Of a DNA stretch of 64,000 nt, positions 1-52,302 are shown in pieces. The notes beneath the pieces are model-generated. The model did no database searches and had not been told where the DNA came from. It saw only the letters and a list, made by a program, of their open reading frames with translations. The stretch is from assembly GCA_000004695.1 (NCBI GenBank), contig CM000154.2, positions 1,280,001 through 1,344,000 of the forward strand. The letters run 5' to 3'. The first letter of the stretch is position 1. Each line of letters opens with the position of its first letter. Both the position numbers and the translations under genes were made by a program. The stretch is from Dictyostelium discoideum (lineage: Eukaryota).

Positions 1-290
<290 letters not shown>

Positions 291-869
291 GTGAATTTGA
301 AGTGGAGCCACTATTTGATGAATGGTCTTCTTCTTTTTTCTTTTTAAATATATTAAACAATTTTTTTTTTTTTTTTTTTTCTTCCTATGTATTTATATTG
401 TTATGATTCCCCCAATTATAATTGTATTTTTTTATTTTTTTAAATATGGCTGATCTGAAATATAAAAAGAGGAAAAATTAAAGTTAATAGAAAATACAAA
501 AAAAAAAAAATATAAAAATATAAAAATTAAAAAATATCTTGGATTGGTGAGAAATGAATTTATATAAGATTGAGGGCAAAATGAAAAAAGTAAAAAAAAA
601 TTAAAAAAAAAAAAATTAAAAAAAAAAAATAAAAAAAAAAAAAAAATAATTTGTAAGATTTCGTCAATTTTATAAAGCCACAATTATTAACACACTCAAA
701 TGAAAAAGAAAATAAAAAATACAAATAAAAAAATAGTTAAAAAGAAGCCACAACCTGTAAATAATAATAGTAATAAAAATAAAAAACCCATATCAATTAA
801 TAATAAGATAAATAAAGAAGTTGTTAAAATAGAAAATAAATCTGAAAAAGGAGATGATGTAATTATATT

Positions 870-907
<38 letters not shown>

Positions 908-992
908 AAACATTCTAAATTAAAAACAAAAACTAATAAAAATTCTTATTTATAGTTTTTATATGTTGGTGAATTTATAAATAATGAAAAGT

Positions 993-1101
<109 letters not shown>

Positions 1102-1179
1102 CATACAATCATACAATTTATTTGAATTCAAATAAATTATTAAAAATATTAATAAAAAAAAAAAAATAAAAAAAAATAG

Positions 1180-2179
1180 AAATGGTAAAGGTATAATTTA
1201 TTATGAGGATGGGACATTAATTGAAGGTAATTGGAAAGATGGTGAATTAAATGGGCAAGGTATATTTAAAACAACGGAATTAATAATTAGTGGAGAATTT
1301 ATTGATGGTGAATTAAGTGGACAAGTTGAAGAGATTGATAAAGAAACTGGCAAACTAGTATTTAAAGGTGAATATTCTCAAGGTCAAAGACATGGTCGTG
1401 GTAAATTAATAATGATTGAAGATGGTGGAGAACTTACAGGCACATGGGTCGATGGTAAAATGACAGGATACGCAGAATACACATTCCCAACATGTAATGG
1501 TAGATTTAAAATCCAAGGTCAATGGTTGAATGGAGATTTGGTTAGTGGTAAATATAATATAAATTATCAACCTTTGAGAAATGAAATCGATGGTAAGCGA
1601 CTCCCCATCGATGACAGGGAGAGAGAGTACATGAGAAGACTCGAGCATTATCAACAGAAAGAGTTAAGCAAGGAATGTAGAAATTTCATATTAAAATTGG
1701 ATGAATCCAACCAGAACACCATCTCAACATCACCATTACACATTGACCTATACGAGAGGTTTCATTGTTTTGTAGGAAAGCAATCAACTATACCGAATTC
1801 AGGTGAAGGTTTATTCGCAAAGATTTTCATACCAAGTGGTACTATCATCTCATTTTATAATGGTATTAGATTGACTCATCAATTGGTGAACTCAAGGTCA
1901 TGGAGTGAAAATAATAATACAATTAGTTTAAATCATGAAACTGTCATCGATGTACCGCCCCATCTAAATGACACTGTCACTCAATACTCTGCTACTATAA
2001 GTCATAAAGCAAATCATTTAGTGCCAGCTAATAATTCTGTATATGCAAGTTTCTATCACCCAAGATTTGGTGATATTAAATGTATCAAAGCAATTAAAGA
2101 TATTAATGAAAATGAAGAAATTTTTGTTGATTATGGTTATTCAAATAATGATACACCTTCTTGGTATAAAGTAAAATAA
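1180..2179 (+). CDS. Histone-lysine N-methyltransferase SETD7 (SET7/9)-like: N-terminal MORN repeats plus C-terminal SET domain. The 5' exon with the initiator ATG is not resolved.
   Basis: Frame 2 is open from about 1172 to the TAA at 2177-2179. It encodes MORN repeats (GTLIEGNWKDGELNGQG..., GEYSQGQRHGRGK...). The C-terminus aligns closely to SETD7: GEGLFAKIFIPSGTIISFYNGIRLTHQLV...ISLNHETVIDVP...HKANH...YASFYHPRFGDIKCIKAI...EEIFVDYGY. There is no in-frame ATG before 1412. The only acceptor-like site is aaaaaatag|a at 1179/1180, which implies an upstream exon (phase 2) that I could not place. Confidence 0.7.
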
Positions 2180-2530
2180 AAAAAATAAAAAAATAAAAAA
2201 ATAAAAAAATTAAAATTATAAAAAAAAAAAAAAAAAAAATAAAATAAAATTCTTGTAAATGTGGAAAAAAAAAAAATTTTTGGTATAAAGGATATAAAAA
2301 AAAAAAAAATAAAATAAAATAAAATAAAAATAAAAATAAATAAAAAAAAAATATTAAAAAAAATAATAAAAAAAGGTAAAATATGGCTTGTGAAATTAAG
2401 AATAATAAATCTATTCAATGAATTTAACACCTATAATAGTTTTACTTAAGTTCCAATAATAATAATTTCATCACTCAAGCCAATCTTTAATAATTGGAAA
2501 AAAAAAGATATTTTTTTTTTTTATTTTTTT

Positions 2531-4582: not shown

Positions 4583-9862
<5,280 letters not shown>

Positions 9863-14678: not shown

Positions 14679-15902
14679 TTAATCTAAATTTTCCAATGGT
14701 TGGATTGGTTTATTAATTTCTTTTATAGACTCTGTATTTAATTGGCCACATGCAGCCAAGATATCACGACCACGTGGTTGTCTAATAGTAACCTTTATAC
14801 CTTTATCATCTAAAATTTTAGAGAATTGGGAAATAGTTTCCTTTGAAGAAGATTTATATTGTGATCCAGGCCATGGATTAAAAGGTATTAAATTTACAAA
14901 AGATGGAAAAGATTTTGAAAGTTTAACTAAATCATAAGCATCTTGTTCTGAATCATTTACACCTTTTAACATTACATATTCGATTGTTATTCTTTCTTTA
15001 CAATTTTTTGAAAATTTAATACAAGCTTCAACCAATTCAGAGATTGGCCATTGTCTATTTGCAGGTACAATCTCTGAACGAGTTTTATCATTTGCACTAT
15101 GTAATGAAATTGCTAAACCAATACCAGGGAAATCACTACCCAGTCTATCGATCAAAGGTACGACACCACTTGTTGAAACTGTGATTTTACTCTTACCAAT
15201 TGCCAAACCATTTGGATCAGTTATGATTTTGATTGCCTTTGAAACGTTTCTATAATTATAAAATGGTTCACCCTGACCCATAAACACTATATTAGTTAGA
15301 GTTCTTTTTATTGAGGAATCTGTAAAATCATTTAAAACATGTCTTGTCGCTATTACTTGTGATACGATTTCTGATGCAGTTAAATTTCTAATGAATTTTT
15401 GGGTACCAGTATGACAAAATGTGCAGGCGAATGTACAACCAACTTGTGATGAAACACAGAGTGTACCTCTTTTACCTTCGGGTATAAACACACTCTCGAC
15501 TTCTGCACCATCAAATGAAATTAAAAGTTTTCTAGTTCCATCTACTGATAATTGATGTTTGGTAATCTCACCTATATTAACTTCATATTTTGATTTTATT
15601 TCTTCTCTTTTTTCTTTTGATACTCTTTCAAATGAATTTATATCCACAATGCCTTTATTATACATAAATGCCCATATTTGTTCACTTAAATATTTTGGAT
15701 ATCCAAGTTTTAAAACTTTATCTTCTAATTCATCTTTTTGAATTCCAATTAAATTAATTTTTTTTATTATATCTGTTTTTTCATTGGTGGTTGTTGTTGT
15801 TGTTAATATTGATTCATTTTTTGAATCAAAATTTTTAATCTTTGAAAATGAATTACAATCTCTTTTTAAAATTTGATTATTTATTAAAATTCTTCTTATC
15901 AT
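14679..15902 (-). CDS. Radical-SAM dual-specificity RNA methyltransferase, RlmN/Cfr family (probably organellar rRNA/tRNA A-C2 methyltransferase); single exon
   Basis: ORF of 407 aa with the radical-SAM CxxxCxxC motif in an RlmN-like context (GTLCVSSQVGCTFACTFCHTGTQKFIRNLTASEIVSQV) and C-terminal ...ILAACGQL. The N-terminus is basic and could be a presequence. Confidence 0.75.
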   Translation of the reverse strand: MIRRILINNQILKRDCNSFSKIKNFDSKNESILTTTTTTNEKTDIIKKINLIGIQKDELEDKVLKLGYPKYLSEQIWAFMYNKGIVDINSFERVSKEKREEIKSKYEVNIGEITKHQLSVDGTRKLLISFDGAEVESVFIPEGKRGTLCVSSQVGCTFACTFCHTGTQKFIRNLTASEIVSQVIATRHVLNDFTDSSIKRTLTNIVFMGQGEPFYNYRNVSKAIKIITDPNGLAIGKSKITVSTSGVVPLIDRLGSDFPGIGLAISLHSANDKTRSEIVPANRQWPISELVEACIKFSKNCKERITIEYVMLKGVNDSEQDAYDLVKLSKSFPSFVNLIPFNPWPGSQYKSSSKETISQFSKILDDKGIKVTIRQPRGRDILAACGQLNTESIKEINKPIQPLENLD

Positions 15903-16274: not shown

Positions 16275-19200
16275 TTAAGTTTGAGTAAACATACGTGGAG
16301 CAATTGACATTGACATTAATTCTTGGAATAAAAGTTTTGCAGCATATGGCATTCTAATTTGAGAAATTTGAGTTTTATTTTTACATCTACGACATTCAAA
16401 TGAATTCTTTTTTAGATTTGCAATTGCAATGAGACCACAAATATCACAAATATGAACACGATAACTATCTGATTGATCGAATAAACGTTCTTTTAAGAAT
16501 TGAGCTGCACCATGAGAAATCATACAATCCTAAAATTATAATAATAATAATAATAATTTAAAATTAATAACTATTTTTACCTTATTTTTTTTTTTTTTTT
16601 TTTTTTTTTTATTAAAAAAACTTACTCTTTCCATCTCACCAAAACGTAAACCACCATCACGAGAACGACCTTCTACAGGTTGACGGGTTAAAATTTGAAC
16701 AGGACCTCTTGAACGACTGTGAATTTTATCATCCACCATATGTTTTAAACGTTGATAATAAGTTGGACCAATAAAGATTTGAGCATCCATACGACGACCA
16801 GTGTGACCATTATACATAACTTCATGACCAGTCATTTGATAACCAATTTTGTGTAGTGCTTGTGAAATAGCTTCTACAGTGACATCAGTGAATGGGGTAG
16901 CATCACCTTCATCACCAGTTGAAGCAGATACTTTACCAAGAAGACATTCAATCAATTGACCAATGGTCATACGAGATGGAATAGCATGTGGATTTACAAT
17001 GATATCTGGAACGATACCTTCAACAGTGAATGGTAAATCCTCTTGACGATAAGCCATACCACAAGTACCTTTTTGACCATGACGAGAAGAGAACTTATCA
17101 CCGATTTGAGGTACACGCATTGAACGAACACGAACTTTACAAAATTTGAAACCTTCACCACTTGTGGTGAGAATAACTTGATCGACAATACCAGTCTCTG
17201 AGGAACGGAGTGCTGTTGAACTATCACGTTTAGTGTGACGACGTGTTTTTGGACCTAAATCATCATCGGATGGTGGTAATGGAGTGGTTTTACCAATGAT
17301 AATATCATCACCAGCCACACGGACACCTGGAGCAACCAAACCATCGTCATCAATCTTTTCATAGGAACCATGACGCATACCAGCGCAAGTATCACGTTCT
17401 GGTTTTTCAAATACTTCTTCCATGAGTGAGGTTTGTTTCTTTTGTTCATCCTTGTATGCACGATAAAACATTGAACGGAAAAGACCACGATCAATAGCCG
17501 ATTGATTTAAAATTACAGAATCCTCTTGATTGTAACCAGAGTAACAAGCGATGGCTACACATACATTTTGACCGGCAGGTAACTCTCTGAAATGAAGATA
17601 CTCCATTGAACGAGTGGTTACCAATGGTTTCTGTGGATAGAATAACACATGGGCCATAGTATCCATACGAAGTTGATAATTTGTAATATAAACACCCATA
17701 GCTTGTTTACCCATAGCAGCTTGATAGGTATTACGTGGTGATTGATTATGATCTGGGAAAGGAATGATAGAGCAACAAATACCCAAAATCATCGATGGAT
17801 GAATTTCACAATGTGTATAGGTATGCACAATTTGCTCGTTTGGCATTGGCACCAAATCTTCGGGAGTCATTGCAATTAGAACGGTCTCTTCTTCTTCAGC
17901 ATCGATATATTCAACGATACCCTCACTTAGGAGATCTTGCCATTTGTATTCGTCATTGTTGATCAATTTATTGATATGTTGTTTCTTAATTTGAACTTTA
18001 TTGTCTTGAACCACAAACAATGGACGACAACATCTACCAGGATCAGTGTACAATCTTAATTCCTTCTCACGAATATCTCTAACAACTGAAACCTCTACGG
18101 ATACATCACCACAACGACGCAATAAACGAAGGGTACTTAATAACTTATCTGGTTGATGATGAATACCTACCCACATACCATTTACAAAGATCTTTGTAGC
18201 AGAGAAAATTGAAGAGAGATCACTAATCTCCTCGAGATTCTCTGTTGTCCATTCTTCAAGAAACTCTAAAATTGGTTGAGATGCTGAACCTACAGAAATG
18301 TAAGACATCATAGCAAGATTCTTTACCAAACCACATGCTTGACCTTCTGGTGTTTCGGATGGACAAACGATACCCCAATGAGTGTTATGAAGTTGACGTG
18401 GTTTTGCTAATTTACCCTCTCTACCGATTGGTGTATTCAAACGACGTAAATGAGATAATGTTGAGGCAAAAGTTAAACGATTCAATACTTGAGCTACACC
18501 ACTCTTTGTGCCACCACTCTTTGAAGAACCCCAATTACCAGTTGCCAATGAATATTTCAAACCACTTGTTATTGTTTTGGATTTAACAGCAGATGATGCA
18601 ATGAATTCTTTATCTTTATCTATACAACGTTGAAGATAAAGACGGACATCTTTTGTAAGTTTTTTAAAAAGTTGACGGAAAAGTGTACCAAGTAGTGGAC
18701 CAGCCAAATCCAAACGTTTATTTGCAAAATGATCACGATCATCCAATGGACGTCTTTCAAGTGAAGCCAATAAAAGACGATGAGTGATATAACCAAAGTA
18801 AAATGCTTTCTTTGTTTCATAGAATTCAGCGACACTAACATGTGGTAACATTTCCTTTTGTAATACTTCACGAGCGAATTTGATACGTTGTTCACGAGTA
18901 CCCATTGTGGAACCACGTTTACCCAAATAATCCAAAGCAACCTCTTGTGATTGAATGACAAAGGACTCCTCGAGTGATGGTCTCATAAGATCCATCATTT
19001 GGGCATCCTTGAAGTCATAACAAATATGTTCTAAAATATCTTTATCGGCAACAAAACCCAATGCTCTAAAGACAATGATAACGGGTACATCTTGTTTAAT
19101 GTAGGGTACAGTGGCTTTGATACCCACTGGACCCTTGTTGGTATTGTGTAACATTTTCAAATACATTGTTGAGGTTGGTCTTGAACCTGTCTCTTGACAA

Positions 19201-19643
19201 GAACGAATCTCTGCAACATATGAATATTTTGATGGTGGTGATTTCTTAAATACGTAAACATGATTGTTGTTCATCTTCTCTTGTGCAATCAATACCTTTT
19301 CACTACCATTAATGATGAAATAACCGCCTTGATCGAATGAACATTCTCCCATCGTTGTTAAATCTCTATCATCTGCTTCATTCAACATACAATATTGTGA
19401 ACGTAACATAATTGGTACTTTACCAATGAAAATTCTCTTTAATACCTCATCGGTTCTTCTTTCATCACCTTTACTCTTTGATCCTGTCATCACCGTTTTC
19501 GTAATATCCACAAATAATGGTGCTGAATAGGTTAAATTTCTAATTCTTGCTTGATTTGGTGTAACTTGTTGTGATACACCATCAATTTCTGCTGTTGGTT
19601 TACTAAGATAAATTTGTCCAAATTTAACTGAAAATGTTGATAC

Positions 19644-19677
<34 letters not shown>

Positions 19678-20079
19678 TAATAATAATAAATTATTAATAA
19701 ATTATAAATATTTATATTATGAGAGTGTGTGTGTATAATTATTGAAATAAATTCATACATTATTACTAACTACTGCTTGACCTGGATGATGTTGTGATTC
19801 AGGTCTTAATGTAATTGGTGGTGATTCATCTATAATTTCTTGCATTGTATTTTGAATAAACTCATCAAATGAATCTAATTGTTGTCTAACTAAACCTTTC
19901 TCTTGAAAATATGCACTAATAACTGTCCAAACATCCTCTTGCGATATATCTGCATGTGGATTATCTATAAAATCATTATAATTTAATAGTTAATAATAAT
20001 TATAATAATAGTAAATATACAATATACTATATATAATATACATACCTTGGGAATCATCATTCATCATATAATCAGACAT
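16275..20079 (-). CDS. rpb2: DNA-directed RNA polymerase II second-largest subunit (Rpb2). Four exons: 20046..20079, 19759..19964, 16626..19643, 16275..16529.
   Basis: Exon 1 is ATG TCT GAT TAT ATG ATG AAT GAT GAT TCC CAA G then GTATGT. Exon 2 encodes [36 protein letters not shown]..., matching the yeast Rpb2 N-terminus. The main exon carries [15 protein letters not shown]...GEMER then GTAAGT. The last exon is [16 protein letters not shown]...CRRCKNK...[16 protein letters not shown] (zinc ribbon). Overall close collinearity with yeast Rpb2. The model gives 80+1006+84 = 1170 aa. Confidence 0.9.
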
Positions 20080-23436: not shown

Positions 23437-25635
23437 GGGTTATCCAGAACAAACTGCATCAGAAGTTGTAGCAAAAATTTTTACATTTGGTTCATATAGA
23501 TTGGGTGTACATGGCCCAGGTAGTGATATTGATACACTTTGTGTTGGTCCAAAACATATAATGAGATCAGACTTTTTTGATGATTTATCAGATATTTTAA
23601 AAGTTCATCCAGAAATTACAGAATTTACAGTAAATATTATTAGATAATTATTATTTATATTAAAATATAACAAATCAAATTAAATTTTTAATACTAATTT
23701 ATTAATTTTTTATTTATTTTTTTTATTTTTTATTTTTATTTATAGACAGTCAAAGATGCATTTGTACCAGTTATAACAATGGTATTTTCAGGTATACCAA
23801 TTGATTTAATTTATGCAAAATTAGCATTAACAGCAATTCCAGAAGAATTAAATGATTTAATTGATGAATCATTTTTAAAGAATATTGATGAAAAGAGTAT
23901 TCTTAGTTTAAATGGTTGTCGTGTGACTGATCAAATTTTAAAATTGGTACCAAATATTCCAAACTTTAGAATGGCATTAAGATGTATTAAACTTTGGGCA
24001 ATTAGAAGAGGTATTTATTCAAATATTTTAGGATTTTTAGGTGGTGTATCGTGGGCACTTTTAACAGCAAGAATCTGTCAACTCTATCCAAACTCTGCAC
24101 CAAGTACCATCATTCATAGATTTTTCAAGGTATATGAAATTTGGAAATGGCCAGCACCCATTTTATTATGTCACATTCAAGAGGGTGGTATTTTAGGTCC
24201 AAAGGTTTGGAATCCAAAGAGAGATAAAGCTCATTTAATGCCAATTATTACACCAGCATATCCTTCAATGAATTCCACTTACAATGTATCCAAATCAACA
24301 TTACAATTAATGAAGAGTGAATTTGTTAGAGGTGCAGAGATCACAAGAAAGATTGAAACTGGTGAATGTACTTGGAAGAATTTATTGGAGAAATGTGATT
24401 TCTTCACTCGTTATAGTTTTTATATAGAGATCGATTGTTATTCAATGAATGAAGAAGATTCTAGAAAATGGGAGGGTTGGATAGAATCCAAATTAAGATT
24501 TTTAATTTCAAACTTAGAGTCTACACCAAAGATGAAGTTTGCTGTGCCATATCCAAAAGGATTTACAAACAATCTTCATAAAGCAAATAATCCCGATCAA
24601 ATTTGTACCTCTTTTTTCATGGGTCTCTCTTTTAATTTTTCAAATACACCAGGTGCCGATAAAAGTGTTGATTTAACCAAAGCTGTGACTGAATTCACTG
24701 GTATAATTAAAGATTGGCTTAGAACTCAACCAAATCCTGATACAATGGATATTAAAGTACAATATATTAAAAAGAAACAACTTCCAGCTTTTGTAAAGGA
24801 TGAAGGTCCTGAAGAACCTGTAAAAACTACAAAGAAGAGATCTTCAACTGGTGAACCTTCTGCAACTAGAAAGAAATTAAAAAGTGAAAATTCTGATAAT
24901 AAATTAAATTCTCCAAAATCTCCAATAACTACAAATATTAATTCTACACCTACTACTTCCACTCCTACTACTACTGCTAATACTACCACTAATACTACCA
25001 CTGCTACTACTACTACCACTACTACAACTGTTCCGATCACTTCCACACCAACTTCAAATATTTCTTCACCAACTATGAATTCTACAGAGTTAACTACACC
25101 AACTTCAACCTCTACAACAACTTCAAATGATTCAATTACAACTCCTCCTACCACTACAACTATCAACTCTGTACAACCACCATCTGCACAACCAACCGAA
25201 AATGGTTCATCAACATCTAATTCACCAACATCTACTTCAATAAATAATACCGCATTACCACCCAATCCAACCACAAACAGTGAGTCAACTATTGAAACAA
25301 CAATAACCCTACCAACAACATTAGAGTCACAAACATCAACATTAAAAGATAGTAACGAAATATCCACCAATGGTACAGCAGTTGCAACTGAACCAACAAT
25401 TACTTCACCATCTGTAAATATAAATGAATCATCAACATCAACATCAACAACAACTACAACAACAGTAACCGAACAACAAATTCAAACTGCACCAACAACT
25501 GCTACTCCAATAAATAAAACCATTGTAAACACTATGGAAGTTAATGAATTAAGCTTCATTTCATCTTCAAGTGAAACTTCTCAATCTAAACCACCACCAA
25601 AGAAACCAACTATCAGTATTATTAGAGGCAATTAA
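22980..25635 (+). CDS. Poly(A) polymerase (canonical nuclear PAP) with a long S/T/N-rich C-terminal tail. Three exons: 22980..23327, 23437..23628, 23746..25635.
   Basis: Exon 1 ...[22 protein letters not shown] then GTAAAT. Exon 2 [47 protein letters not shown]... (nucleotidyltransferase GS...DID motif), then gtaaat. Exon 3 from tatag|ACA: [27 protein letters not shown]...[62 protein letters not shown], almost identical in blocks to vertebrate PAPOLA. The minus ORF 24726..25370 is an antisense artefact. Confidence 0.9.
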
Positions 25636-30715: not shown

Positions 30716-31179
30716 TTAAAATTTAATTAATGAAGGATAATCATTTTTACCACCCAATTCAATCATTTCATTAGAATCATTTTGATTTTCACCCCAAAAT
30801 GATTTTGAATAGTCAATAAAAATCTGTTCACCTTTTTTAATTGATTTAGTTGCAGTGATGAGTGCTTGTTCACAACCATATTCAAATATACATTCACTTT
30901 CTGCATTTTTAAATTTACTTGAATGATTAATCATACCACCCATTGATCTATATTTTGAGGCATCTAAACCAAAATCTTCATTTGAAATCATCATATTATA
31001 ATTTGTAGTTTCCATTTTTTCATTCATTGTTATCATACCACCATATCTAACTATAAAATCACCACTTTTAAAATCCTTACCTGCAAATAATCCCCAACCT
31101 ACTGATTCTGAAATAAATCCTAAAATTATATTTTCTTCACCACCACTATTATTAATTAACTTTAAATATATGTTAATAA

Positions 31180-31273
<94 letters not shown>

Positions 31274-32160
31274 TTCTCACACCCCGTATTTTTCAAATGT
31301 ATTTTTATTATTATTTTTTTTAAAAAAATTATACAAACATTTAAATATTTATTTCTAAAATTTAAATCTGGATTAATTTGTAAACTTGAAAATAATAAAT
31401 CAACTAAATAATCATTTGTTGATAAAACTTTTGAAGTATAAATTATATTTAATTTTAATTGTAATTGTTCAATTGATAAATCTTCAAATGATGATGAATT
31501 ATTATTATTATAAGTTTTAATTGATTTTGGAGTTGGTGGAGTATTTGATGGTAATAATCCTTTTAATTTTGCATAATCGAAACCAGTTGCTCTAAATGAA
31601 TCAATTGTATCAAAAAATGTAAAATTCTTTAAATCTTTAATTTTTGGTGATTCTATTATATATTGTAAAATCTCTTTATTACCAAGCATCATTGCTAAAT
31701 GAAATATAGTTATACCAGTAACTGGATCACGAAATTCCACTAAATTATATCCACCTTGTTCAAAAATATATTTAAAAATTTCAATATCATTAGTTCCAAT
31801 TGAAAAAAATAAACTCATTCTATTCAATGATGGTGATTCTAATTCTTCTTCATTTTTTATTTGTTGTTGTTGATTTAATAAATCTTTAAAGAAATTTGGA
31901 TTTCTTCTTAATTCTGATGATAATTGATATTTAATACTACCTAAATCTTTTTCTAAAATTATCTCTGTTAATGATGTTAATTGATCTTCAAAAACTAACT
32001 TTGCTGCCATCATATAAATATCTGAGAATTCTTTTGATGCTTCTTTATCTTGTCCAAGTTTTTCAATATATTGATTTTCAAAACTAATATCTTTATCATT
32101 TATTTCATTTTCATTTATATTAAAATCTTTTTCAATTCTTTTTTTCCAATAATTATTCAT
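30716..32160 (-). CDS. SET-domain protein (SETD7-like SET fold) with N-terminal ankyrin-like region. Proposed two exons: 31339..32160 and 30716..31159.
   Basis: C-terminal exon: ESVGWGLFAGKDFKSGDFIVRYGG...MINHSSKF...ECIFEYGCEQALITATKSIKKGEQIFIDYSKSFW. This matches the core SET motifs (GWG, NHS, FIDYS) and resembles the SET region of the gene at 1180..2179. Upstream ORF 31162..32160 (...GITIFHLAMMLGNKEILQYII...) is in another frame. Proposed splice: ...NKYLN|gtttgt (31338) to ttaaaag|TTA (31159), both phase 0. This needs confirmation. Confidence 0.5.
31184..31274. repeat. (ATT)n microsatellite of about 30 units inside the proposed intron of the SET-domain gene
   Basis: Direct reading. The poly-I/poly-L ORFs here are artefacts. 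Confidence 0.85.
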
Positions 32161-32495: not shown

Positions 32496-33538
32496 TTAGT
32501 TGGCAGCAGCGATATCTTTGGCGTATTGAGCAAGAGTACCGTGGTTGGTGATGACTTTAACGTTGGCACCATCGTTCATTAAACGACCGTCAGCTTTTAA
32601 TTTTTGGTAAGCTTCACGATTGTAGGCGGTGAAACCCCATTTCTTTGAGACAACGATCTTTTGACGACCTGGGAATTTGTATGAAGATCTACGTAAAGCT
32701 TCAACAACGTTGGCTAACATATTATCTCTGGTTCTGATGGAGAAAATGATTTGACCAATATTAACACGAGCAACAGTACCCATTGGTTTACCGAAGGCAC
32801 CTCTCATACCGGTTTGAAGTCTATCTGCACCAGCGCATGAAAGCATCTTGTTAATACGTAATACGTGCCATGGGTGAACTCTGACTCTCATGTGGAATGA
32901 ATCTTTACCACCAGTCTTTGAGATGTATTTGTTACATGAAATACGACCAGCTTCAATGGCTTCTGATGAAAGTTGTTCTTTTTCGAGGGAGATGAGATGA
33001 ACACATAATGGGAATTCATCAGTTGATGCTTTCTTACGACCTAAATCGAAAATTCTGATTTTAGCATCTGGTACACCACGACAATATCTAGATTTGATGT
33101 ATGGTTTGTTCTAAAGTGAGAGAGGTTAGTTCTCTTCTACTTTTTTTTAAAAAAAAAATAAAATAAAATTAACTTACTTTGCAATATCTGTAGCTATTTT
33201 TTCCAATTGGTTTATAATTTTTTTTTTATAAAGTTGAAATTTTAGTTAGTATCTATATTCATCATAATCCTTTATCTGTATAATAAGTCCAATATAAATA
33301 TATCCTCATTCTTCAATCAATCCAATATCATCATAAATAATCTATAATCAATCCTATCAATCTTTATTTCTCAATCCCATATCTAACCTATTGATAATTA
33401 CCATCTAGCTGGACCTAAATATTTTTAAAAAATAATGTTAGTTTATTTTATTTTTTTTTATTTTTTATTTTTTTTTTTAATTAATTTTTTATGTGATATG
33501 TGATATAGTGACACATACGACGACCCATTTTTTATATT
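32496..33538 (-). CDS. rpl10: 60S ribosomal protein L10 (uL16/QM), with three 5' micro-exons. Exons: 33529..33538 (10 nt), 33402..33414 (13 nt), 33178..33193 (16 nt), 32496..33110.
   Basis: ATGGGTCGTC|gtatgt, then tttag|GTCCAGCTAGATG|gtaatt, then aatag|CTACAGATATTGCAAA|gtaagt, then tttag|AACAAACCATAC... The splice yields MGRRPARCYRYCK|[109 protein letters not shown].... This is an exact match to the universal RPL10 N-terminus. 217 aa. Confidence 0.88.
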
Positions 33539-37087: not shown

Positions 37088-39928
37088 ATGAATAAATTTT
37101 ATTCATTACCATTAATTATTATTTTAATAATTTCGTGTGGTGCTTTTTTTATCCACGGAGAAGAGGCATATTTTGAATATAGGATTCATAATGAAAAATT
37201 TATTTTCAAACTTAGTGATGATATTAAAATTCAACATGCAAGAAGAGTATTATCTGGTGGTATGTATTTACAAATAAAAAAATAAATAAATAACTTAAAA
37301 AATAAACAAATAATTAATTAATTATATAATCGAATTAATAAATTAATAAATAAATGAAAAAATAAATAAACAATTAAATAAATAAAAAAATAAAAGAATG
37401 AATTGATTGACAACATTATACTAATTTTTTTTTTTTATAAATTCTTATAGATGAAATAAGTTTGTAAGTTGATAATAGTTATTTTATTATTATTTATTTA
37501 AATATCTTCTTAATATTAATATTTACTATAACCCAATAATTATAAAAAAATAGAACAAACGTTGTAGGTAAAATTATTAACAAACCAATAGAATATAATA
37601 TTAATTGGGATTTTCATCTTGACCCAGACTCAGTTACTTTTTTTGAATCTGAAACAGAGGTAAATTTATATTTAATAATATTTTTATTTTATTTATTTAT
37701 TTTTTAAAAAATATTTAACAAAGTCAATTAACATGTAAATTAAAAATATTTAAAAAAAAAAAAAAAAAAAATAGTTTTGTAACCAAAAATTCCAGTATGT
37801 AAATGGATATATTGATAAACTTTGTGAAAGTGATAATTGTTATTTTTGCCCATGGGATGGTTCACTTGTTAGGGAATTATATTTTGGAGATATTAAACAA
37901 GATCTATTACTTCGTAATAATGAAAATCAACAAGTAAAACAAGTATATGAAGGTGATATTAAACAAGATTTAATTCGTCGTAAAAATAAAATTCATCCAG
38001 AAAAACAAATGCATGAAGAGGATATTAAACAACAAGTTTTTTTCCGTATCAAAAATATTCATGAAAAACCAGTTTATGAAGGTGATATCAAACAAGATTT
38101 ATTACGTCGTAAAAATAAAAATAATCCAGAGAAACAAGTATATGAAGGTGATATTAAACAAGATTTATTACGTCGTAAATATTATGATAAATCTCAATCA
38201 ACCCAAGTATATCAAGGTGATGTGATTCAAGATATATTACGTTCAATAAATCGTCAAGAAAAAGAAATTTATGAAGGTGATATCAAACAAGATTTATTAC
38301 GTCGTAATAATCAAAATAATCAAGAAAAACAAGTTTATGAAAGTGATATCAAACAAGATATTTTACGTCGTAAATATTATGAAAAATCCCAATCAACCCA
38401 AGTATATCAAGGTGATATGACTCAAGATATATTACGTTCATTAAATCGTCAAGAAAAAGGAGTTTATGAAGGTGATATCAAACAAGATTTATTACGTCGT
38501 AAGTATTATGATAAATCTCAATCAAACCAAGTATATCAAGGTGATGTGATTCAAGATATTTTACGTTCTATAAATCGTGATAAAAAACCAGTTTATGAAG
38601 GTGATATCAAACAAGATTTGTTGCTTCGTAATAATCAAAATCCACAAGAGAAATCAATATATGAAGGTGATATCAAACAAGATATATTACGTCGTAAAAA
38701 TCTTGATAAATCTCAATCAATACAATTTTATCCAGGTGATATTATTCAAGATATTTTACGTGTTTTAAATCGTGAGGAAAAAGAAGTTTATGATGGTGAT
38801 ATTAAACAAGACTTATTATCTCGTAAAAATCTTGCCAAATATCAATCAACAGAAGTATATCCAGGTGATGTCATTCAAGATGTTTTACGTGTATTAAATC
38901 ATGATGAAAAAGAAGTTTATGAAGTTGATATCAAACAAGACTTGTTACGTCGTAATAATAAAAATCCACAAGAGAAACCAGTATATGAAGGTGATATTAA
39001 ACAAGATATTTTACGTCGTAATAATCTTGATAAATCTCAACCAAAACAAGTATATCCAGGTGATACTATTCAAGATATTTTACGTATTATTAATCGTGAT
39101 GAGAAAGTTTACGAAGGTGATATTAAACAAGACTTATCAGGTCGTAAAAATCATCAAGAGAAAACTGTTTATGAAGGTGATATCAAACAAGACTTATTAC
39201 GTCGTAAAAATCTTGATAAACCTGATTCAAAACAAGTATATCCAGGTGATGTTATTCAAGATATTTTACGTGTTATTAATCGTGATGAAAAAGAAGTTTA
39301 TGAAGGTGATATTAAACAAGACTTATTACATCGTAATAACAAAAATCGTCAAGAGAAACCAGTATATGAAGGTGACATTAAACAAGATTTATTACGTCGT
39401 AATAACAAAAATCATCAAGAAGAACAAGTATATCAAGGTGATATTATTCAAGATATTTTACGTGTTTTAAATCATGAAGAGAAAGAAGTTTACGAAGGTG
39501 ATATTAAACAAAATTTGTTGCGTCGAAAAAATCATGATCATCCAGAAAAAGAAATTTATGAAGGTGATATTAAACAAGATTTATTACGTCGTAATAACAA
39601 AAACCATCAAGAGAAACTTGTTTATGAAGGTGACATTAAACAAGATTTATTACGTCGTAATAACAAAAATCATAAAGAAGAACAAGTATATCAAGGTGAT
39701 ATTATTCAAGATATTTTACGTGTTTTAAATCATGGAGAAAAAGAAGTAAATGAGGATGAAATTGAAAAAGATTTGATGCAACGTAAAAATCACCATCAAG
39801 AAGAAGAGGCTTCTGAAGACTTGGAAGAAGAAATTGGAAAACTTTGGAATAAACAAAGTCAAGCATTTGTTGAACAACATCCAAACCAACACAACAATCA
39901 AAAAACAATTCACTTGTCAAGACAATAA
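37088..39928 (+). CDS. Secreted tandem-repeat protein of unknown function: signal peptide plus about 28 copies of a 22-25 aa charged repeat (consensus ..[22 protein letters not shown]..). Four exons: 37088..37259, 37451..37463 (13-nt micro-exon), 37554..37659, 37775..39928.
   Basis: Exon 1 [26 protein letters not shown]... (signal peptide) ends in phase 1 with GTATGT. cttatag|ATGAAATAAGTTT|gtaagt restores the frame into aaatag|A ACA AAC GTT..., giving [35 protein letters not shown]|gtaaat. The final exon starts either at atag|TTT (37775) or ccag|TAT (37796); both are in frame. It encodes ...[33 protein letters not shown]... followed by the repeat array (ORF 38009..39928). The overlapping small plus ORFs (38013.., 38577.., 38901.., 39474..) are repeat-frame artefacts. 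Confidence 0.6.
37880..39760 (+). repeat. Coding tandem repeat array of about 66-75 bp units (consensus gtttatgaaggtgatattaaacaagatttattacgtcgtaa...)
   Basis: Direct reading: more than 25 near-identical units in alternating A/B forms ([15 protein letters not shown]... / [20 protein letters not shown]). Confidence 0.85.
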
Positions 39929-43199: not shown

Positions 43200-43657
43200 T
43201 TAATAGAAATTATCAAGAAAATCATCAGTTTCTTGTGAGGCATGAGTAATGATTATGGTATTTGAAAATTTCAAATTATTGAGATTATTATTTTGGATGA
43301 ATTGATTCGCCATAAAATTTCCAATTTCTTTTTTAATTTCCAAACTATTTTCATCTTCATTGATGTATAACAATTTTTGATCACAATTATTATTATTGTT
43401 GATGTTATTAATTTCATTATTACTGTTATTAAAGTTGTTTTCATTATTTTTAATAAAACTATTATAAAATTGAGTATAATTTATATCTTTTCCAATCCAA
43501 ACATATAAAATCCTATCATATTTTGAAATTAAAATAAATAAACCATCATCAGCTAAATCTTCACAATCAAATACATCATATTCTTCCCATGAATTTTCTT
43601 CTTTTATGAAACGGTATAGATATGCTCTACCATTACCATTTCCATTACTATTATTAA

Positions 43658-43718
<61 letters not shown>

Positions 43719-45545
43719 TTTGCTATTATTATTTACAAGTTGTTCGGTTGTTGTTGTAGTTGTTATAGTAGTAGTTGTTGTAGTACTATTATTATTATTG
43801 TTGTTATTATTATTATTTGTTGTACCATTATGATTATTTATAAAATCAGAGATACTATATTGTTGAGTTTTAAAATCTTTATCATATGCAAATACTAAAC
43901 CAACACCACCTTCACCACCAAGGTGATCCCAAAACTTATCATCTTCATGACCTTGTCGAAGTTCGATAATATTGGTTGAATCATTTTCGTAGCGTTGAAA
44001 TCTTGAGATGGCAAGTTTGGCAGATTCCAAAAATAAGTCACCCAATTTACCAACACAGCCTTCACCACTCCAAATGTAGATACAATCGGTCACACGAAGT
44101 ATAAAACAACAACGTGCATCCAATGAAAGATAGGAAACGGTTTGAACTCTTTTTGGTACTATTAGTCCATCCAATAGTTGAACCATTCTATAGAGTAGTG
44201 GTTGCTCCTTCACAGAGGGATGTTGAAGATGTTTCAATAGAAATTTATTCCAATACATTAGTTGACCAGTGAAACCAGGATTTGGATTTGAAATGTATCT
44301 TCTCTTTTTGGTGAATTCGTGTGCCTGTTGAAAACTCCATTTATTGATCCACATTAGATAGAGTATAACGAATGCTGAGCTTCTTGAGATACCTTGATGA
44401 CAATGAATATAAACTTTACCATTGGTTTTGGTTGCATCTTGAATGAAATCTAAAATCTCATAGAATAAACAACTAATATCCTCTCCATTGCCATCACTAA
44501 TGAATAAAGTTTTATAAACGAAATGGTCTTGGAAATGATTCGGACAAACCATACCCGCACAATTTAGAATATGTGTTATACCTTCACCCTTTAACAATTG
44601 TAGGTTGGATGCTGGTATTCTACTACCTAAATAGAGTTCATCAACAATTCTATTCAATGTTGGTTCAAAAAATAATATTAACTCTTTTTGTGATAAATGT
44701 TGGAACTCTTCTTGACATTGATCAATTCTATGTGAGACACTTGGTGGTATCATTATATTATTATTATTATTATTATTATTGTGATAACTATTAAGATGAC
44801 TTAAATTTGGTGGTATGGTACCTCTAGGAGTTGATGGTGGAGTAATTCTTAAAGAATTTAAATCTGGTAATTTTAATGATTTCTTTACCCAATTTGTGTT
44901 ATTTGTAGTTGTAGTTGTGGTCGTGGTTGTTGATGATGAGGATGAAGATGTTGATGATGATGGTAATGGCATTGATGACATTGACATTTGCTTACCAAAG
45001 TTTAATGAGGGTACTACTTTTTTAGAAGCATTTGTTATTTGATTATTTGTTGAAGTTGTTGTGGTTGTTGTTGTTGTTGATGATGATACTCCATTACCAT
45101 TTGATTTAGTATTTGATAAATTTAATGAGAGTTTTGGAACCATTATTGGTTTAATTAATTTCTCTTGTTGTATTGGTTCTTGTGATGATGATGATGATGG
45201 TGGTGGTTGTTCTTGATGCTGTGTTATTGGCTGTTGTAAAGGTAAAGATAAGGATGGAATCTTACCTTTTGGAATTTGGATTTTTGGTATTATTGTTGTT
45301 GTTGTTGTGGTAGTTGTTGGTGGTGGGGATGATGTTACATTAATTGTTTTAGTTGGTGAATGTTGCGGTTGTGTTGATCCAGATTTAGAATCAGCTATTG
45401 GTATTGGTAAAAATAATGGGGATGGCGAAGACGATGATGATGAGGGTGATGTTGGTGGAGAGAATGAAAGTTTCTTTAATACTTCAAACAATGGTTTTGT
45501 ATTTATTGATGTATTATCACCATTAGTGATTGGCAGTGATGGTGG

Positions 45546-45625
<80 letters not shown>

Positions 45626-46039
45626 GGGATGGGGAAGGTGGTTGTGATGATTCTTTCTTTTTAACAGTATTGCTTTGGCTCTCATCTTTTTTATTTAAAT
45701 TGTTCAGGTTATTTGGATTGTTATTGTTATTATCATCACCACTACTATTATTATTATTATTATAATTATTACTATTACTAAAGTTAGAGTTATTACTATT
45801 AAAATTTCCATTATTATGATTATTTCCATTATTATTATTATTATTATTATTGTTTTGGTTATGATTATTGTTATTATTATTTTGGTTATTTTGACTATTG
45901 TTATCATTATTGCTATGATTATACTGATTGATTGTTTTTAAATTAACAAATATATTACTTATATTTAAAATAGTTGATGGTTGAGTTATAACCTGAACAG
46001 AAGATGGTATATTATTTCCATTATTAGTTATATTTTGAC

Positions 46040-46132
<93 letters not shown>

Positions 46133-46594
46133 CTTGATTATTATTACAAAAGGTATTAATATTAAAATTTGTCTTTAAAAATGTTGGTTGAAAATTATTT
46201 TTTATAAAATGTTTACAAAAATTGAAAAAATTTTTATTTGGTATTGAATCATCACCATCTTCACTTTGAAATTGAATTGAATTTTCAAAGGGTATTAATT
46301 CTCCATCAAATAAACTGAAATCATTATCAATAAAATAATTTGATATTGGCGAAAAATTTACAAAATTACTATTATTATTATTTATATTATTATTATTATT
46401 GTCAACTAAATAATCAATATTGTTATTACTATTAAGATTACTATTTACACCAATCCTCTTTTCAAATAATTTTTGTATAATTTGAGAGGAATTGTTTGGT
46501 AATTTCCAATATTTATTCGAGTCGTATGATGTAGTTTGAGTGTTGTTATTATTAATATTATTATTATTGTTATTATTATTGTTATTATTATTAA

Positions 46595-46691
<97 letters not shown>

Positions 46692-47096
46692 ATTATGATT
46701 ATTAATATTAATATTAATATTATTATGATTATTAATATTAATATTAATATTATTATTATTATTATTATTATTAGTGATAGCAGCGGTTGTTAATGATGAA
46801 AAAGATGATTCTGAAATGGTTTGTGGTTGTAATGATGATGAAGCTGCTGATGATGATGAAAAAGATGCAGAAGATGATGAGGATAATGATGTAGTTGATG
46901 AAGATGAAGATGTTGGTGATAATAAAGGTGATGATGAAGAAGAAGATGATGGCGACTGTTTTACAGCAAGACTCTCACTAAACTTTAGTGCTTTTGAAAA
47001 TTCAAGTGCTTTTGATAAACAAAATGCACGTGATAATGAATCTGAATTTTTACCATTCCATGTATATAAATCATGTAATAGCTTGCAATTTAATAA

Positions 47097-47130
<34 letters not shown>

Positions 47131-47686
47131 ATTAATACTTTATTTATAATAATAAAATAAAATAAAATAAAATAAAATAAAATAAAATAAAATAAAATAA
47201 ATACCTTATTATTTGAATCAAAATAAGAAAATAATGGATCATGTGATAAAATATTATTTAAACTTCTAGGTGATGATATATATGATTTATTAACATTATT
47301 TTGATTTGAATTAAAAACATGTAAAATTATATAACATTCCGATTGATTATAATTTTTATAATGAAGTAAATCTACAGATTGAAATTGTATTATTGAATCA
47401 CTATTTTGATCCACTAAAACCTTCCAAATAAATAAATAAGACCCAAATATTTCGGCTATTGGTGTTGATGTTGGTGTAACTAAATTACTATAACTACTAC
47501 CACCTCCATTACTATTACTATTACTATTACTACTAATATTACTATTATTATTATTATTATTATTAATATTATTATTATTATTATTATTATTTATATTATT
47601 AAAAAGGTGATGATGATGAATATTATGATTTATTATGGTTGTTGGTATTGAAACTACAAGTGGACTATTTTTACATTTATTTTTAT

Positions 47687-47718
<32 letters not shown>

Positions 47719-47954
47719 CAACTACTACTAACACTATTATTACTACTGTTACTGCTACTGCTATTACTATTATTACAATTATTAATTGTTGTCGTTGTAG
47801 TTGTAGTCGTTGTTGTTATTGTATTTTTAAGTTTTGTATTGGTTGTATTTAAATTTGGTGTTATTGTTGAATTTTGAAAAGATTTAAGGTCATGTACTTT
47901 AAATAAATCATCTAATTGAGGTGGGGAAACACTAACTCCAATTGTATTACCCAT
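43200..47954 (-). CDS. Large low-complexity protein with a dual-specificity protein phosphatase (DSP) catalytic domain and two gelsolin-like repeats. Proposed exons: 47205..47954 and 43200..47081.
   Basis: One long ORF (1584 aa as listed). The 123-nt segment 47082..47204 is bounded by AAG|gtattt and ttgcaag|CTA, consists of (ATAAA)n plus poly-T, and is a multiple of 3, so it reads through in frame but is most likely an intron. Domains: DSP active site VYIHCHQGISRSSAFVILYLM (HCxxGxxRS) with upstream EGITHILNCAG; gelsolin-like segments RCCFILRVTDCIYIWSGEGCVGKLGDLFLESAKLAISRF...ELRQGHEDDKFWDHLGG and LYRFIKEENSWEEYDVFDCEDLADDGLFILISKYDRILYVWIGKD. The rest is poly-N, poly-Q (Q29 from the (CAA)n at 45541..45627), poly-S/T and poly-H tracts. 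Confidence 0.65.
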
Positions 47955-49696: not shown

Positions 49697-50099
49697 CTAA
49701 AGAGTATCTTCGGCATCAGTAAAATATTCATCACTATCACTACTACTGCCGTCTATTTCACTAATGCTGATGAAAATTGAATCTTTGGAAACATTTGTAT
49801 CATTGTTGGTTTGAGATTCACATGTATCAATATCTTGATACTCATAATTTGATTCTAATGTTGAGTTTGTTTTTGATTTAAAAGAAACTTTTGAGGATGG
49901 TTTATTTTCTGGTTCTGATGAAATATCTGGTTCTGATAAATCTGATTCATCTGAGGAAGGTTCTATACCAGACTCAAAAGAAGAGCTCAAGCTCGATTCT
50001 GAATCAGAGTCAGAGTTCTGGTTTGATTCAGAATCAGAGTTCTGGTCTGAATCAGAGTCAGAGTTCTGGCCTGATACAGAGTTCTGGGCTGGGCACTCC

Positions 50100-50155
<56 letters not shown>

Positions 50156-51702
50156 AAGGGTGTGGTCATTATGATAATTATTATTATTATTATTATCATC
50201 ATCACCATCATCAACATCATCATCATCATCATCATCTTCTTCTTCTTCTTCTTCATTATCATCATCATCATAATTGTCCTCATCATCATAGTCGTCTTCA
50301 TCGTAATTATCGTCACCATTATTATTATCATCAAGGTTATATTGTATTTTTGGATGGTTCGATTTGATATGTTTTAAAAGGTAATCATTTCTTTTAAAGC
50401 TAGAATCACATATTTCACAACTGAATCTAGTGATTGTGTCAATTGATTTCTTGTGAAACTTTCTGATATGTTTGGTAAGATTGCTTTGAGTCGAAAAGAT
50501 TTTGTTACAATGTTTACATTCTTTTTTTTTTTTCAACTCATTCTCAATTTTACTGATTTCTTCACCATTAATATCAGTTTTTTTATCTTTATGAATCGCT
50601 TTAATATGTCTTATTAAATTATATCTTTTAGTAGAGTAATATGAATTACATAAGCCACATTTAAATTTTGGTTTTGGGTTATGTCCTTTTTCCATTTGGC
50701 AATTCGTACTACAATCATAGTGAGAAGAATTTTCATGTCTTAAAACGTGGTCTTTTGAATTATTAGTGAATTTGGAACCATTTGCACCCTTTAAACAAAT
50801 TTCATGTCTACACTCTTTTGTAGCCTCCATTTTTAAGGTTGAATTTTTGGTAGGAGTTTTACTTTTAATATTTTGAATTTTATTTTCTTTGTTCTGTATT
50901 TCTTTTTCTGTTTTCTTTTTTCTTTCGTTTTCTTTTTTTCTTTCGTTTTCTTTTTTTCTTTCGTTTTCTTTTTTTCTTTCGTTTCCATTTTCATTTTCAT
51001 TTTCTTTTTCTTTTTCATTTTCGTTTTCATTTTCATTTTCATTTCCTTTTTCATTTTCATTTTCATTTTCATTTTCATTTCCTTTTTCTTTTTCTTTTTC
51101 ATTTATTGGTTCAATACCACTATATCCATTGTGATCATCTCTATTATTGCTATGATTAAAATCGTTATAATCATTACTGTTATCACCACTAGAATTAAAA
51201 TCGCTGGTGGTATAGTCACTAGTCTTATTACTATCATTATCAGAATTCTTCATTCCATTATCATTTGCTATTGGTAGAGATGCAGTTGATGGGGTTTTAG
51301 CAGAAGTTGTAGTTTTTGTTTTGGATGGATCTATATTACCTGTTTGATGTTGTGCAGTTTTTTTGGGTGATTCTAAATATAAAGGTTGGTTTGTTTCCAA
51401 AGATTGATCTATTGAATTTGGTGTTTGTTGATCATTTGGTTCTAATGATTGATTTAAGGTTGATTTTTGGTGTGCTGTTTTTGATTTTAAATGTTGTTCT
51501 GTATATTTTGGTTTTGAGTCAGATGGAAGTGGTTTTTGTAATTGTTTATTGATGATTGAGTTTTGTAGTTGCTCTTTTGGTGGAGGTTTCTCAAGGGTTT
51601 TTAATCTAAATGGTGAGGTGGTTATTGAAGATATTGATTCAAAAGTTTTCGAAAGCAATGATTTTATGTTCTTTCTTTCATTTTCATTATTGTAATTAAT
51701 AG

Positions 51703-51736
<34 letters not shown>

Positions 51737-52090
51737 ACTTTCTTTATTATTTTTATTAATTGCAACATCTTTTTTTTTATTTTCACTTGAATCTTTAATT
51801 TGGATTCTAGCATTTTCATTGTTTTCATCGTCTTTGTCATTTTCATTTTCACCCCCATCATCATCCATTAATAAAGCATTTGTGATTTTATTAATTGTAT
51901 GCTTTTTGTTTGGTAAACTGAGTTCATCTGGTTCTGAATCTGAACCCCAAGGATCTTTTCTTTTATTTGTGAGGGGTTGTCTTTTTTTTGTAAGTGTTTT
52001 TTTAATTTCATTTTTTTCAATTCCCCCGCTATTGTCCCTTTTAAAAAATGAAAATAATATCGATGAGCTTGAAGTTGTTGTATTACTCAT
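49697..52090 (-). CDS. C2H2 zinc-finger protein with acidic and (ENEN/K)-repeat low-complexity regions; apparently a single exon
   Basis: ORF 49697..52180. The first 30 codons (MSHFFFLKNFFF...) look like AT-rich leader, so the likely start is MSNTTTSSS at 52090. It carries at least four C2H2 fingers: HYDCSTNCQ..., FKCGLCNSYYSTKRYNLIRHIKAIH, KECKHCNKIFSTQSNLTKHIRKFH, FSCEICDSSFKRNDYLLKHIKSNH. There is a D/E-rich tract, a (GNENENENEK)n tract and poly-N (from the (TTA)n at 50101..50150). The overlapping opposite-strand ORFs are artefacts. Confidence 0.6.
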
Positions 52091-52302
52091 TTTTATTTTA
52101 TTTTGTTTGAAATACTCTTGATATATGTTTATCAAATAAATAATGAAAAAAAAATTTTTTAAAAAAAAAAAATGAGACAAATTCGGCTCTTTAAGAATAA
52201 AAAAAAAAAAAATTTTTAAAAAAAAAAAATAATCTTTGCAATTTTAGTCAATTTACAAATTTTACCGCCTATTTTTTTTTTTTTTTTTTTCTCAATTTAA
52301 AA

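Follow-up and report, generated by a model that had tools for sequence, protein, structure and literature searches.

SETD7 (also SET7/9 or KMT7) is a lysine monomethyltransferase acting on sites of the [K/R]-[S/T]-K type, and in mammals it acts largely on non-histone proteins. The human and vertebrate enzyme, whose structures include PDB entries 1H3I, 1N6C and 1O9S, joins a MORN-type N-terminal domain to a SET domain with a SET7/9-specific insert and a C-terminal Trp-Tyr element. Here we describe a gene with this same architecture, hereafter gene 1, in a 64,000-nucleotide (nt) stretch of the Dictyostelium discoideum genome (assembly GCA_000004695.1, contig CM000154.2, positions 1,280,001 to 1,344,000). 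We call this whole stretch the window and give positions within it. Although SETD7 is usually treated as a vertebrate or animal enzyme, it has full-length homologues in Dictyostelia, in unicellular holozoans and in a few other protists; within animals, it has been reported absent from annelids (PMC12153100).

Exon structure of gene 1

The largest coding block of gene 1 lies at 1180..2179, preceded by an AG acceptor at 1178/1179 and closed by a TAA stop codon at 2177..2179. Base 1180 is the third base of a codon, so that two bases must come from upstream; the reading frame thus confirms the view of an earlier, sequence-only reading that the acceptor at 1179/1180 demands a phase-2 upstream exon. 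That reading had also described the frame as open upstream, but it is open for only about 15 A-rich codons before an in-frame stop is met. Finally, it had seen no identifiable start exon and had set aside the open reading frame (ORF) at 700..858 as one that does not fit. The donor of this ORF is indeed in phase 0 and cannot be joined directly to the block: a splice from 858 to 1180 is out of frame and was rejected. A 35-nt micro-exon at 956..990, however, converts phase 0 to the phase needed at 1180, and thereby links 700..858, as exon 1, to 1180..2179. We are therefore highly confident that 1180..2179 is the 3' exon of a three-exon gene (700..858, 956..990, 1180..2179) which encodes a predicted SETD7-type methyltransferase of 397 amino acids (aa) and which has been annotated already. 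Its parts are as follows:

700..858, plus strand: exon 1, 159 nt, from ATG 700 to a phase-0 donor (GTAATT at 859); codes for aa 1-53
859..955, plus strand: intron 1, 97 nt, GT..AG, 10% GC, with a poly-T tract inside
956..990, plus strand: micro-exon, 35 nt, coding for FLYVGEFINNE and the first two bases of Lys65; the first MORN repeat starts here
991..1179, plus strand: intron 2, 189 nt, GT..AG, 4% GC, largely an (ATT)n microsatellite
1180..2179, plus strand: exon 3, 1000 nt including the stop codon; codes for what remains of the beta-sheet domain of MORN type, then for a helical linker and for the SET domain, which has a WY segment at its C-terminus

The micro-exon sits between a canonical acceptor and a canonical donor (tatag/TTTTTATATGTTGGTGAATTTATAAATAATGAAAA/gtaatt at 956..990). 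Read in phase 0, it yields its eleven residues followed by AA, and the A at 1180 finishes Lys65. The three exons sum to 1194 nt, and the junction yields a complete MORN repeat (YVGEFINNEKNGKG). The predicted product is identical at 397 of 397 positions to the AX4 protein XP_636856.1 (EAL63344.1; UniProt Q54J80), which is named histone-lysine N-methyltransferase by NCBI and SETD7 by UniRef. The AX4 reference annotation and UniProt thus already contain gene 1, with its three exons and the name of its family, and as a discovery the result carries little weight. The puzzle has an ordinary answer, namely a 35-nt micro-exon.

Comparison with other dictyostelids supports this structure. The micro-exon has the marks of a spliceosomal exon: AG/GT sites, a length that restores the frame, and coding sequence that is conserved while the introns diverge. 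A second genome of the D. discoideum complex (L001) has the same exons, with an identical micro-exon and a protein that is 96% identical without gaps. All length differences between the two genomes (8, 71, 28 and 7 nt) fall within the two introns of gene 1, the 8-nt difference in the T-run of intron 1 and the large ones confined to intron 2. The intron-2 microsatellite itself differs by 71 nt between these genomes.

In D. firmibasis (L004), exon 1 is found at 2229..2387 (159 nt) and the micro-exon at 2476..2510 (35 nt). These exons were located by a targeted motif search; an unfiltered blastn search of the 5' region was swamped by low-complexity matches. The D. firmibasis micro-exon (cattag/TATTTATATGTAGGTGAGTTTATAAATGGTGAAAA/gtaact) keeps its AG/GT sites and shows two synonymous and three non-synonymous base changes, while the neighbouring introns are unalignable. 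Applied to this species, the three-exon model gives an intact ORF of 399 aa. When D. discoideum is compared with D. firmibasis, the ratio of non-synonymous to synonymous substitution rates (dN/dS) comes to 0.22 in exon 1 and 0.26 in the micro-exon, both resting on the small counts that short exons provide. Tieghemostelium lacteum (L005, 2501..3785), from a different dictyostelid group, likewise has the gene in three exons; its micro-exon is 42 nt long and homologous in position. In D. purpureum (L002, 3001..4170), the orthologue is an uninterrupted ORF of 1170 nt in which the sequence ...GKYIGERNENNEKHGKG... runs across both junction positions; both introns have been lost in this species.

Three automatic gene models are without exon 1 and the micro-exon and are truncated at the N-terminus, starting inside the first MORN repeats:

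D. firmibasis, KAK5578753.1: 334 aa
D. dimigraforme, KAN0039249.1: 334 aa
D. discoideum strain, KAM9947163.1: 324 aa

That three recent automatic annotations miss both exons indicates how easily the micro-exon is overlooked. It defeats naive exon chaining, and in at least three recent cases it has defeated the automatic annotation of a sister genome; these models could be corrected.

Family membership and inheritance

Sequence and structure comparisons agree on the family of gene 1. Pfam recognises MORN repeats (1.2e-15, in four stretches) and a SET domain (4.3e-9), and finds no pre-SET or post-SET domain. In a phmmer search of PDB, human SET7/9 is matched with an expectation value (E) of 4.6e-56, through both the N-terminal domain (57 bits, residues 73-190 aligning to the 1H3I N-domain) and the SET domain (140 bits). 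With the whole protein as query, no SET family besides SET7/9 was matched in PDB at E < 0.01, the other matches being MORN proteins. When only the SET region is used as query, 16 SETD7 sequences of PDB are matched at 145 bits (E 1.6e-41), and the next family, Clr4/SUV39, reaches 17.8 bits (E 0.021). All full-length relatives that bear a family name are called SETD7, with no other SET family among them.

The AlphaFold2 model of the protein (predicted local distance difference test score, pLDDT, 86.8; predicted template modelling score, pTM, 0.83) has 12 strands over residues 54-192 and a helical linker at about 199-232 between the two domains. Its first beta-strand (54-61) starts at residue 54, which is the first residue of the micro-exon. 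Residues 1-53 have pLDDT < 55, consistent with disorder, and form a basic tail rich in Lys and Asn, which we speculate could be a nuclear-localisation or nucleic-acid-binding segment. A Foldseek search of PDB with this model returned SET7/9 structures as its best 36 matches (E down to 3e-28, target TM up to 0.88), with alignments of 309-330 columns to the full-length structures; MORN1 and radial-spoke proteins followed, matching the N-domain only. Its sequence, its fold and its catalytic residues all place gene 1 in the SETD7 (KMT7) family. The MORN-plus-SET architecture recognised by the sequence-only reading is thus borne out.

Full-length MORN-plus-SET homologues occur in the dictyostelids D. 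purpureum, D. citrinum, D. firmibasis and T. lacteum. Further non-animal homologues come from the filasterean Capsaspora (where the protein is annotated as a 'histone H3-K4 methyltransferase'), the ichthyosporean Chromosphaera, the choanoflagellate Salpingoeca urceolata, Mantamonas, Reticulomyxa, the fungus Basidiobolus and a Pyramimonas parkeae transcriptome, while records within animals include sponges, a cnidarian and Trichoplax. The sequence-only reading held that a SET7/9 orthologue outside metazoa would be notable. A SETD7-family gene is indeed present in the amoebozoan D. discoideum AX4, but the implied novelty is lost, as the AX4 protein already carries the name SETD7 and full-length homologues are on record from several protists.

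Outside animals the distribution of the family is patchy (Basidiobolus ranarum, Pyramimonas parkeae, Mantamonas, Reticulomyxa, Capsaspora), and transcriptome-derived entries may include contaminants. For B. ranarum, contamination from a frog was considered and is not supported: its sequence has its own long branch (0.38), apart from Rana. Within Dictyostelia, homology searches with gene 1 gave no match for Polysphondylium, Heterostelium, Cavenderia or Acytostelium, which could reflect loss or missed gene models.

Neighbour-joining (NJ) trees placed the dictyostelid sequences and EukProt P0002, which groups with T. lacteum, in one clade with 99% bootstrap support. This clade lies among protist sequences and is nested in no animal group; the vertebrate clade has 100% support. 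The trees were built from SETD7-like proteins, and the separation from other SET families is taken from the gap between 145 and 17.8 bits.

Gene order provides a further line of evidence. Directly downstream of gene 1, on the same strand, is a gene for a Roco kinase (4583..9862, plus strand) with LRR, Roc, COR-A/B, kinase and WD40 domains. A same-strand Roco gene (Roc-COR-kinase-WD40) also lies downstream of the gene 1 orthologue in D. purpureum, D. firmibasis and T. lacteum. The sharing of this neighbour between dictyostelid groups 3 and 4 implies that gene 1 has been at this locus since before those groups split. Gene 1, its micro-exon and its neighbouring gene are conserved within Dictyostelia.

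On the simplest reading, the SETD7-type gene belongs to an old, pre-metazoan family that has undergone many losses. We put at about even the chances of the wider proposal, in which SETD7/KMT7 with its MORN and SET domains predates animals and was inherited vertically in Dictyostelia. As Set1 is responsible for all detectable methylation of histone H3 lysine 4 in D. discoideum, this haploid amoeba would then offer a clean genetic system for finding the ancestral non-histone substrates. In the open-access literature searched, we found no paper that uses Dictyostelium to study such ancestral substrates, and Dictyostelium could serve as a simple genetic model for the non-histone functions of SETD7.

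The alternative that fares best is that the dictyostelid gene arrived by horizontal transfer, with an animal or another holozoan as the donor, and is not a vertical orthologue, which we consider unlikely. The patchy distribution speaks for transfer, in that no match was found in four dictyostelid genera even though the ankyrin-SET gene described below is found in most of them. So does the identity of gene 1 to vertebrate SETD7 (39-41%), which is as high as that to protist homologues, and there is a precedent in the animal-to-dictyostelid transfer proposed for Set8 by Kishore et al. 2013 (PMC3598677). However, the dictyostelid sequences form a clade of their own with EukProt P0002, among protists and outside every animal group. 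Since groups 3 and 4 share both the Roco-kinase neighbour and a homologous micro-exon, any transfer would predate the split of those groups, and the homologues in Capsaspora, Chromosphaera, Salpingoeca, Mantamonas and Reticulomyxa fit an old eukaryotic family with losses.

Catalytic residues and predicted activity

Having placed gene 1 in the SETD7 family, we compared its residues with those that matter in the human enzyme. All of human G227/E228/G229, Y245, N265, H293, K294, N296, H297, Y305, Y335, Y337 and W352 are conserved; leaving K294 aside, the equivalents in gene 1 are, in the same order, G273/E274/G275, Y291, N311, H340, N343, H344, Y353, Y383, Y385 and W393. The substrate-groove residues R258, W260, T266, S268 and K317 (human numbering) are likewise conserved. 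Gene 1 has the SET7/9 fold and the cofactor-binding and catalytic residues, and it is under purifying selection.

By analogy with the human enzyme, gene 1 probably encodes a protein-lysine methyltransferase dependent on S-adenosylmethionine (AdoMet), which would move a single methyl group from this cofactor to lysines of target proteins. Monomethyl-lysine is the predicted end point because both tyrosines that limit human SET7/9 (Y245 and Y305, here Y291 and Y353) are retained. The targets would probably be non-histone proteins rather than bulk lysine 4 of histone H3 (H3K4), a role that would mirror the one of mammalian SETD7. All detectable H3K4 methylation in Dictyostelium is due to Set1 (PMC8053100), which makes H3K4 an unlikely bulk in vivo substrate of gene 1 and would set the amoebal protein apart from human and vertebrate SETD7.

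The substrate groove also shows changes. In D. discoideum, human D256 is replaced by Asn (N302) and E254 by Leu (L300), at about 1888..1896 of the window, and D. purpureum has Asn and Thr at these positions. EukProt P0002 (D244, E242) and most other homologues examined retain both acidic residues, and T. lacteum, read by eye, keeps Asp at the D256 position. Should SETD7 prove ancestral and vertically inherited, D256N and E254L in group 4 might mark a shifted target motif.

Several points weigh against the account given so far. The splice junctions of gene 1 are based on comparative evidence and the reference annotation. The Pfam SET7_N profile scores 23.4 bits, under its 27-bit cut-off. The human residue positions mapped onto gene 1 come from a SETD7 sequence that we take to be the human one; its length is right, the residues named in the literature stand at their published positions, and its identity to SETD7 of snakes and frogs is 78-83%. 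Backbone bootstraps of the NJ trees are 12-53%, and with so weak a backbone strict orthology is at most probable, as against an ancient transfer. The D256N and E254L changes in group-4 Dictyostelium suggest that target specificity may have shifted. Lastly, the open-access literature searched holds no biochemical or genetic data on the gene 1 protein: full-text queries pairing SETD7 with Dictyostelium or Amoebozoa, or naming Q54J80, yielded incidental co-mentions or nothing. Gene 1 thus appears to be known to databases and unstudied in that literature.

Could the protein be catalytically inactive, or a pure MORN/SET scaffold? The literature searched contains no report of its activity, its C-terminus is shorter than the human one and ends in WYKVK, with K in place of human E356, and the D256N and E254L changes lie in the peptide groove. 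Against this, every residue examined that binds AdoMet or lines the lysine channel is conserved, dN/dS in the SET half is 0.08, which indicates strong purifying selection, and superposition of the model on ternary complexes of SET7/9 gives TM values of up to 0.88. We regard an inactive protein as quite improbable and retain the prediction of a monomethyltransferase.

We give practically no credence to a translation start at the internal ATG 1412 with no upstream exons, raised by the sequence-only reading as a case in which part of the MORN-repeat N-terminus, the sequence before this ATG, would be non-coding: the ATG does open the longest ORF in a mechanical listing (1412..2179, 255 aa) and the gene 1 model is based on comparison and annotation, but the start is rejected because residues 66-143 (1180..1411) recur in every dictyostelid orthologue and can be aligned with the N-domain of human SET7/9, because they are modelled as beta-strands of the N-terminal sheet with pLDDT >= 94, because the D. 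purpureum ORF runs unbroken from its own ATG through this region, and because dN/dS against D. firmibasis, at 0.24 in the part of exon 3 upstream of ATG 1412 as compared to 0.08 downstream, shows purifying selection on all sequence before that ATG (0.22-0.26).

A second SET gene and comparison with known systems

The sequence-only reading described two SETD7-like genes in the window. A second SET gene does exist at 30716..32160, but it is an ankyrin-plus-generic-SET protein that, judged by sequence, belongs to a different SET family from SETD7. It is laid out as follows:

31339..32160, minus strand: exon 1, starting at ATG 32160 and ending at the donor 31338; codes for the N-terminal region, which holds the ankyrin repeats
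31160..31338, minus strand: intron, carrying an (ATT)n repeat
30716..31159, minus strand: exon 2, generic SET domain, with the stop at 30716

The 421-aa product matches XP_636817.1 (DDB_G0288263, Q54J70) exactly, and the sequence at its splice junction, KYLNLINNSGGEEN, is kept in all dictyostelid orthologues. Alternative splice pairs, joining a donor at 31334 with an acceptor at 31103 or 31100, were rejected, as they lose conserved residues and the 421-aa model matches XP_636817.1.

Pfam finds a C-terminal SET domain (5.3e-14) and no MORN repeats in this protein; the ankyrin repeats are only weakly recognised from the sequence by itself (Ank_3, E 3e-4) but strongly when a family profile is searched against PDB. 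The full profile was flooded by ankyrin matches, and the PDB search was redone with the SET part alone. EZH2, SETD8/KMT5A, MLL3, LegAS4 and SETD2 then gave similarly low scores (28-37 bits, and 34-37 bits for EZH2, SETD8 and MLL3), with none standing out, and SETD7 was not among the best 60 PDB matches in either sequence or family-profile searches. Aligned over 112 residues, the two SET domains of the window are 25% identical, and a profile-profile comparison of the two families found generic SET similarity only (probability 91.6%, 99 columns). Named orthologues of the second gene come from Dictyostelium, Tieghemostelium, Polysphondylium, Acytostelium and Heterostelium; full-length orthologues are named in dictyostelids only, in addition to one metagenome protein at 35% identity.

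With both SET genes coding for proteins identical to AX4 entries, the window is AX4 DNA or cannot be told apart from it. As a whole it is extremely AT-rich (14-34% GC per 2 kb), and it contains (ATT)n microsatellites as well as poly-A/T tracts between genes. The long microsatellites, of the (ATT)n/(AAT)n kind, lie at 1..290, 995..1098 and 31185..31275; two of them are intronic, one in intron 2 of gene 1 and one in the single intron of the second SET gene. Further genes recognised by Pfam are at 14682..15902 (minus), 16539..19760 (minus), 23779..25632 (plus), 32499..32891 (minus), 43203..47954 (minus) and 49700..52180 (minus). Their products comprise a radical-SAM protein, an Rpb2-type RNA polymerase second-largest subunit, a poly(A) polymerase, ribosomal protein uL16/L10e, a large dual-specificity phosphatase and a C2H2 zinc-finger protein. 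An ORF at 38009..39925 (plus) has only NMB0315_dom_I and YopX matches without a matched stretch, which look like low-complexity artefacts.

Compared with known systems, the two SET genes stand apart from each other. The second gene shares with EZH2, SETD8/KMT5A, MLL3 and LegAS4, whose SET domains are the nearest of solved structure, a canonical SET core with GxG, NHS and C-terminal Y motifs, and it is without the MORN repeats, the SETD7-type insert and the WY tail of SETD7. The combination of ankyrin repeats and SET domain is common to this protein, to LegAS4/RomA and to G9a/GLP; in the Legionella effectors LegAS4/RomA, however, both modules are in the opposite order to that of DDB_G0288263, and the LegAS4 match in PDB amounts to 32 bits.

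Gene 1 in turn has MORN repeats in common with MORN1, RSPH1 and the junctophilins, proteins from which the SET domain is absent. Its residues at about 52-190 match MORN1 and RSPH1 structures at E values of 1e-18 to 1e-11, and those residues alone are covered. Human and vertebrate SETD7 is 35-41% identical to gene 1 over about 85% of the length. Unlike the human protein, gene 1 bears a disordered, Lys/Asn-rich N-terminal tail of 53 residues on a separate exon, a longer helical linker between its domains, and a C-terminus that is about 10 residues shorter.

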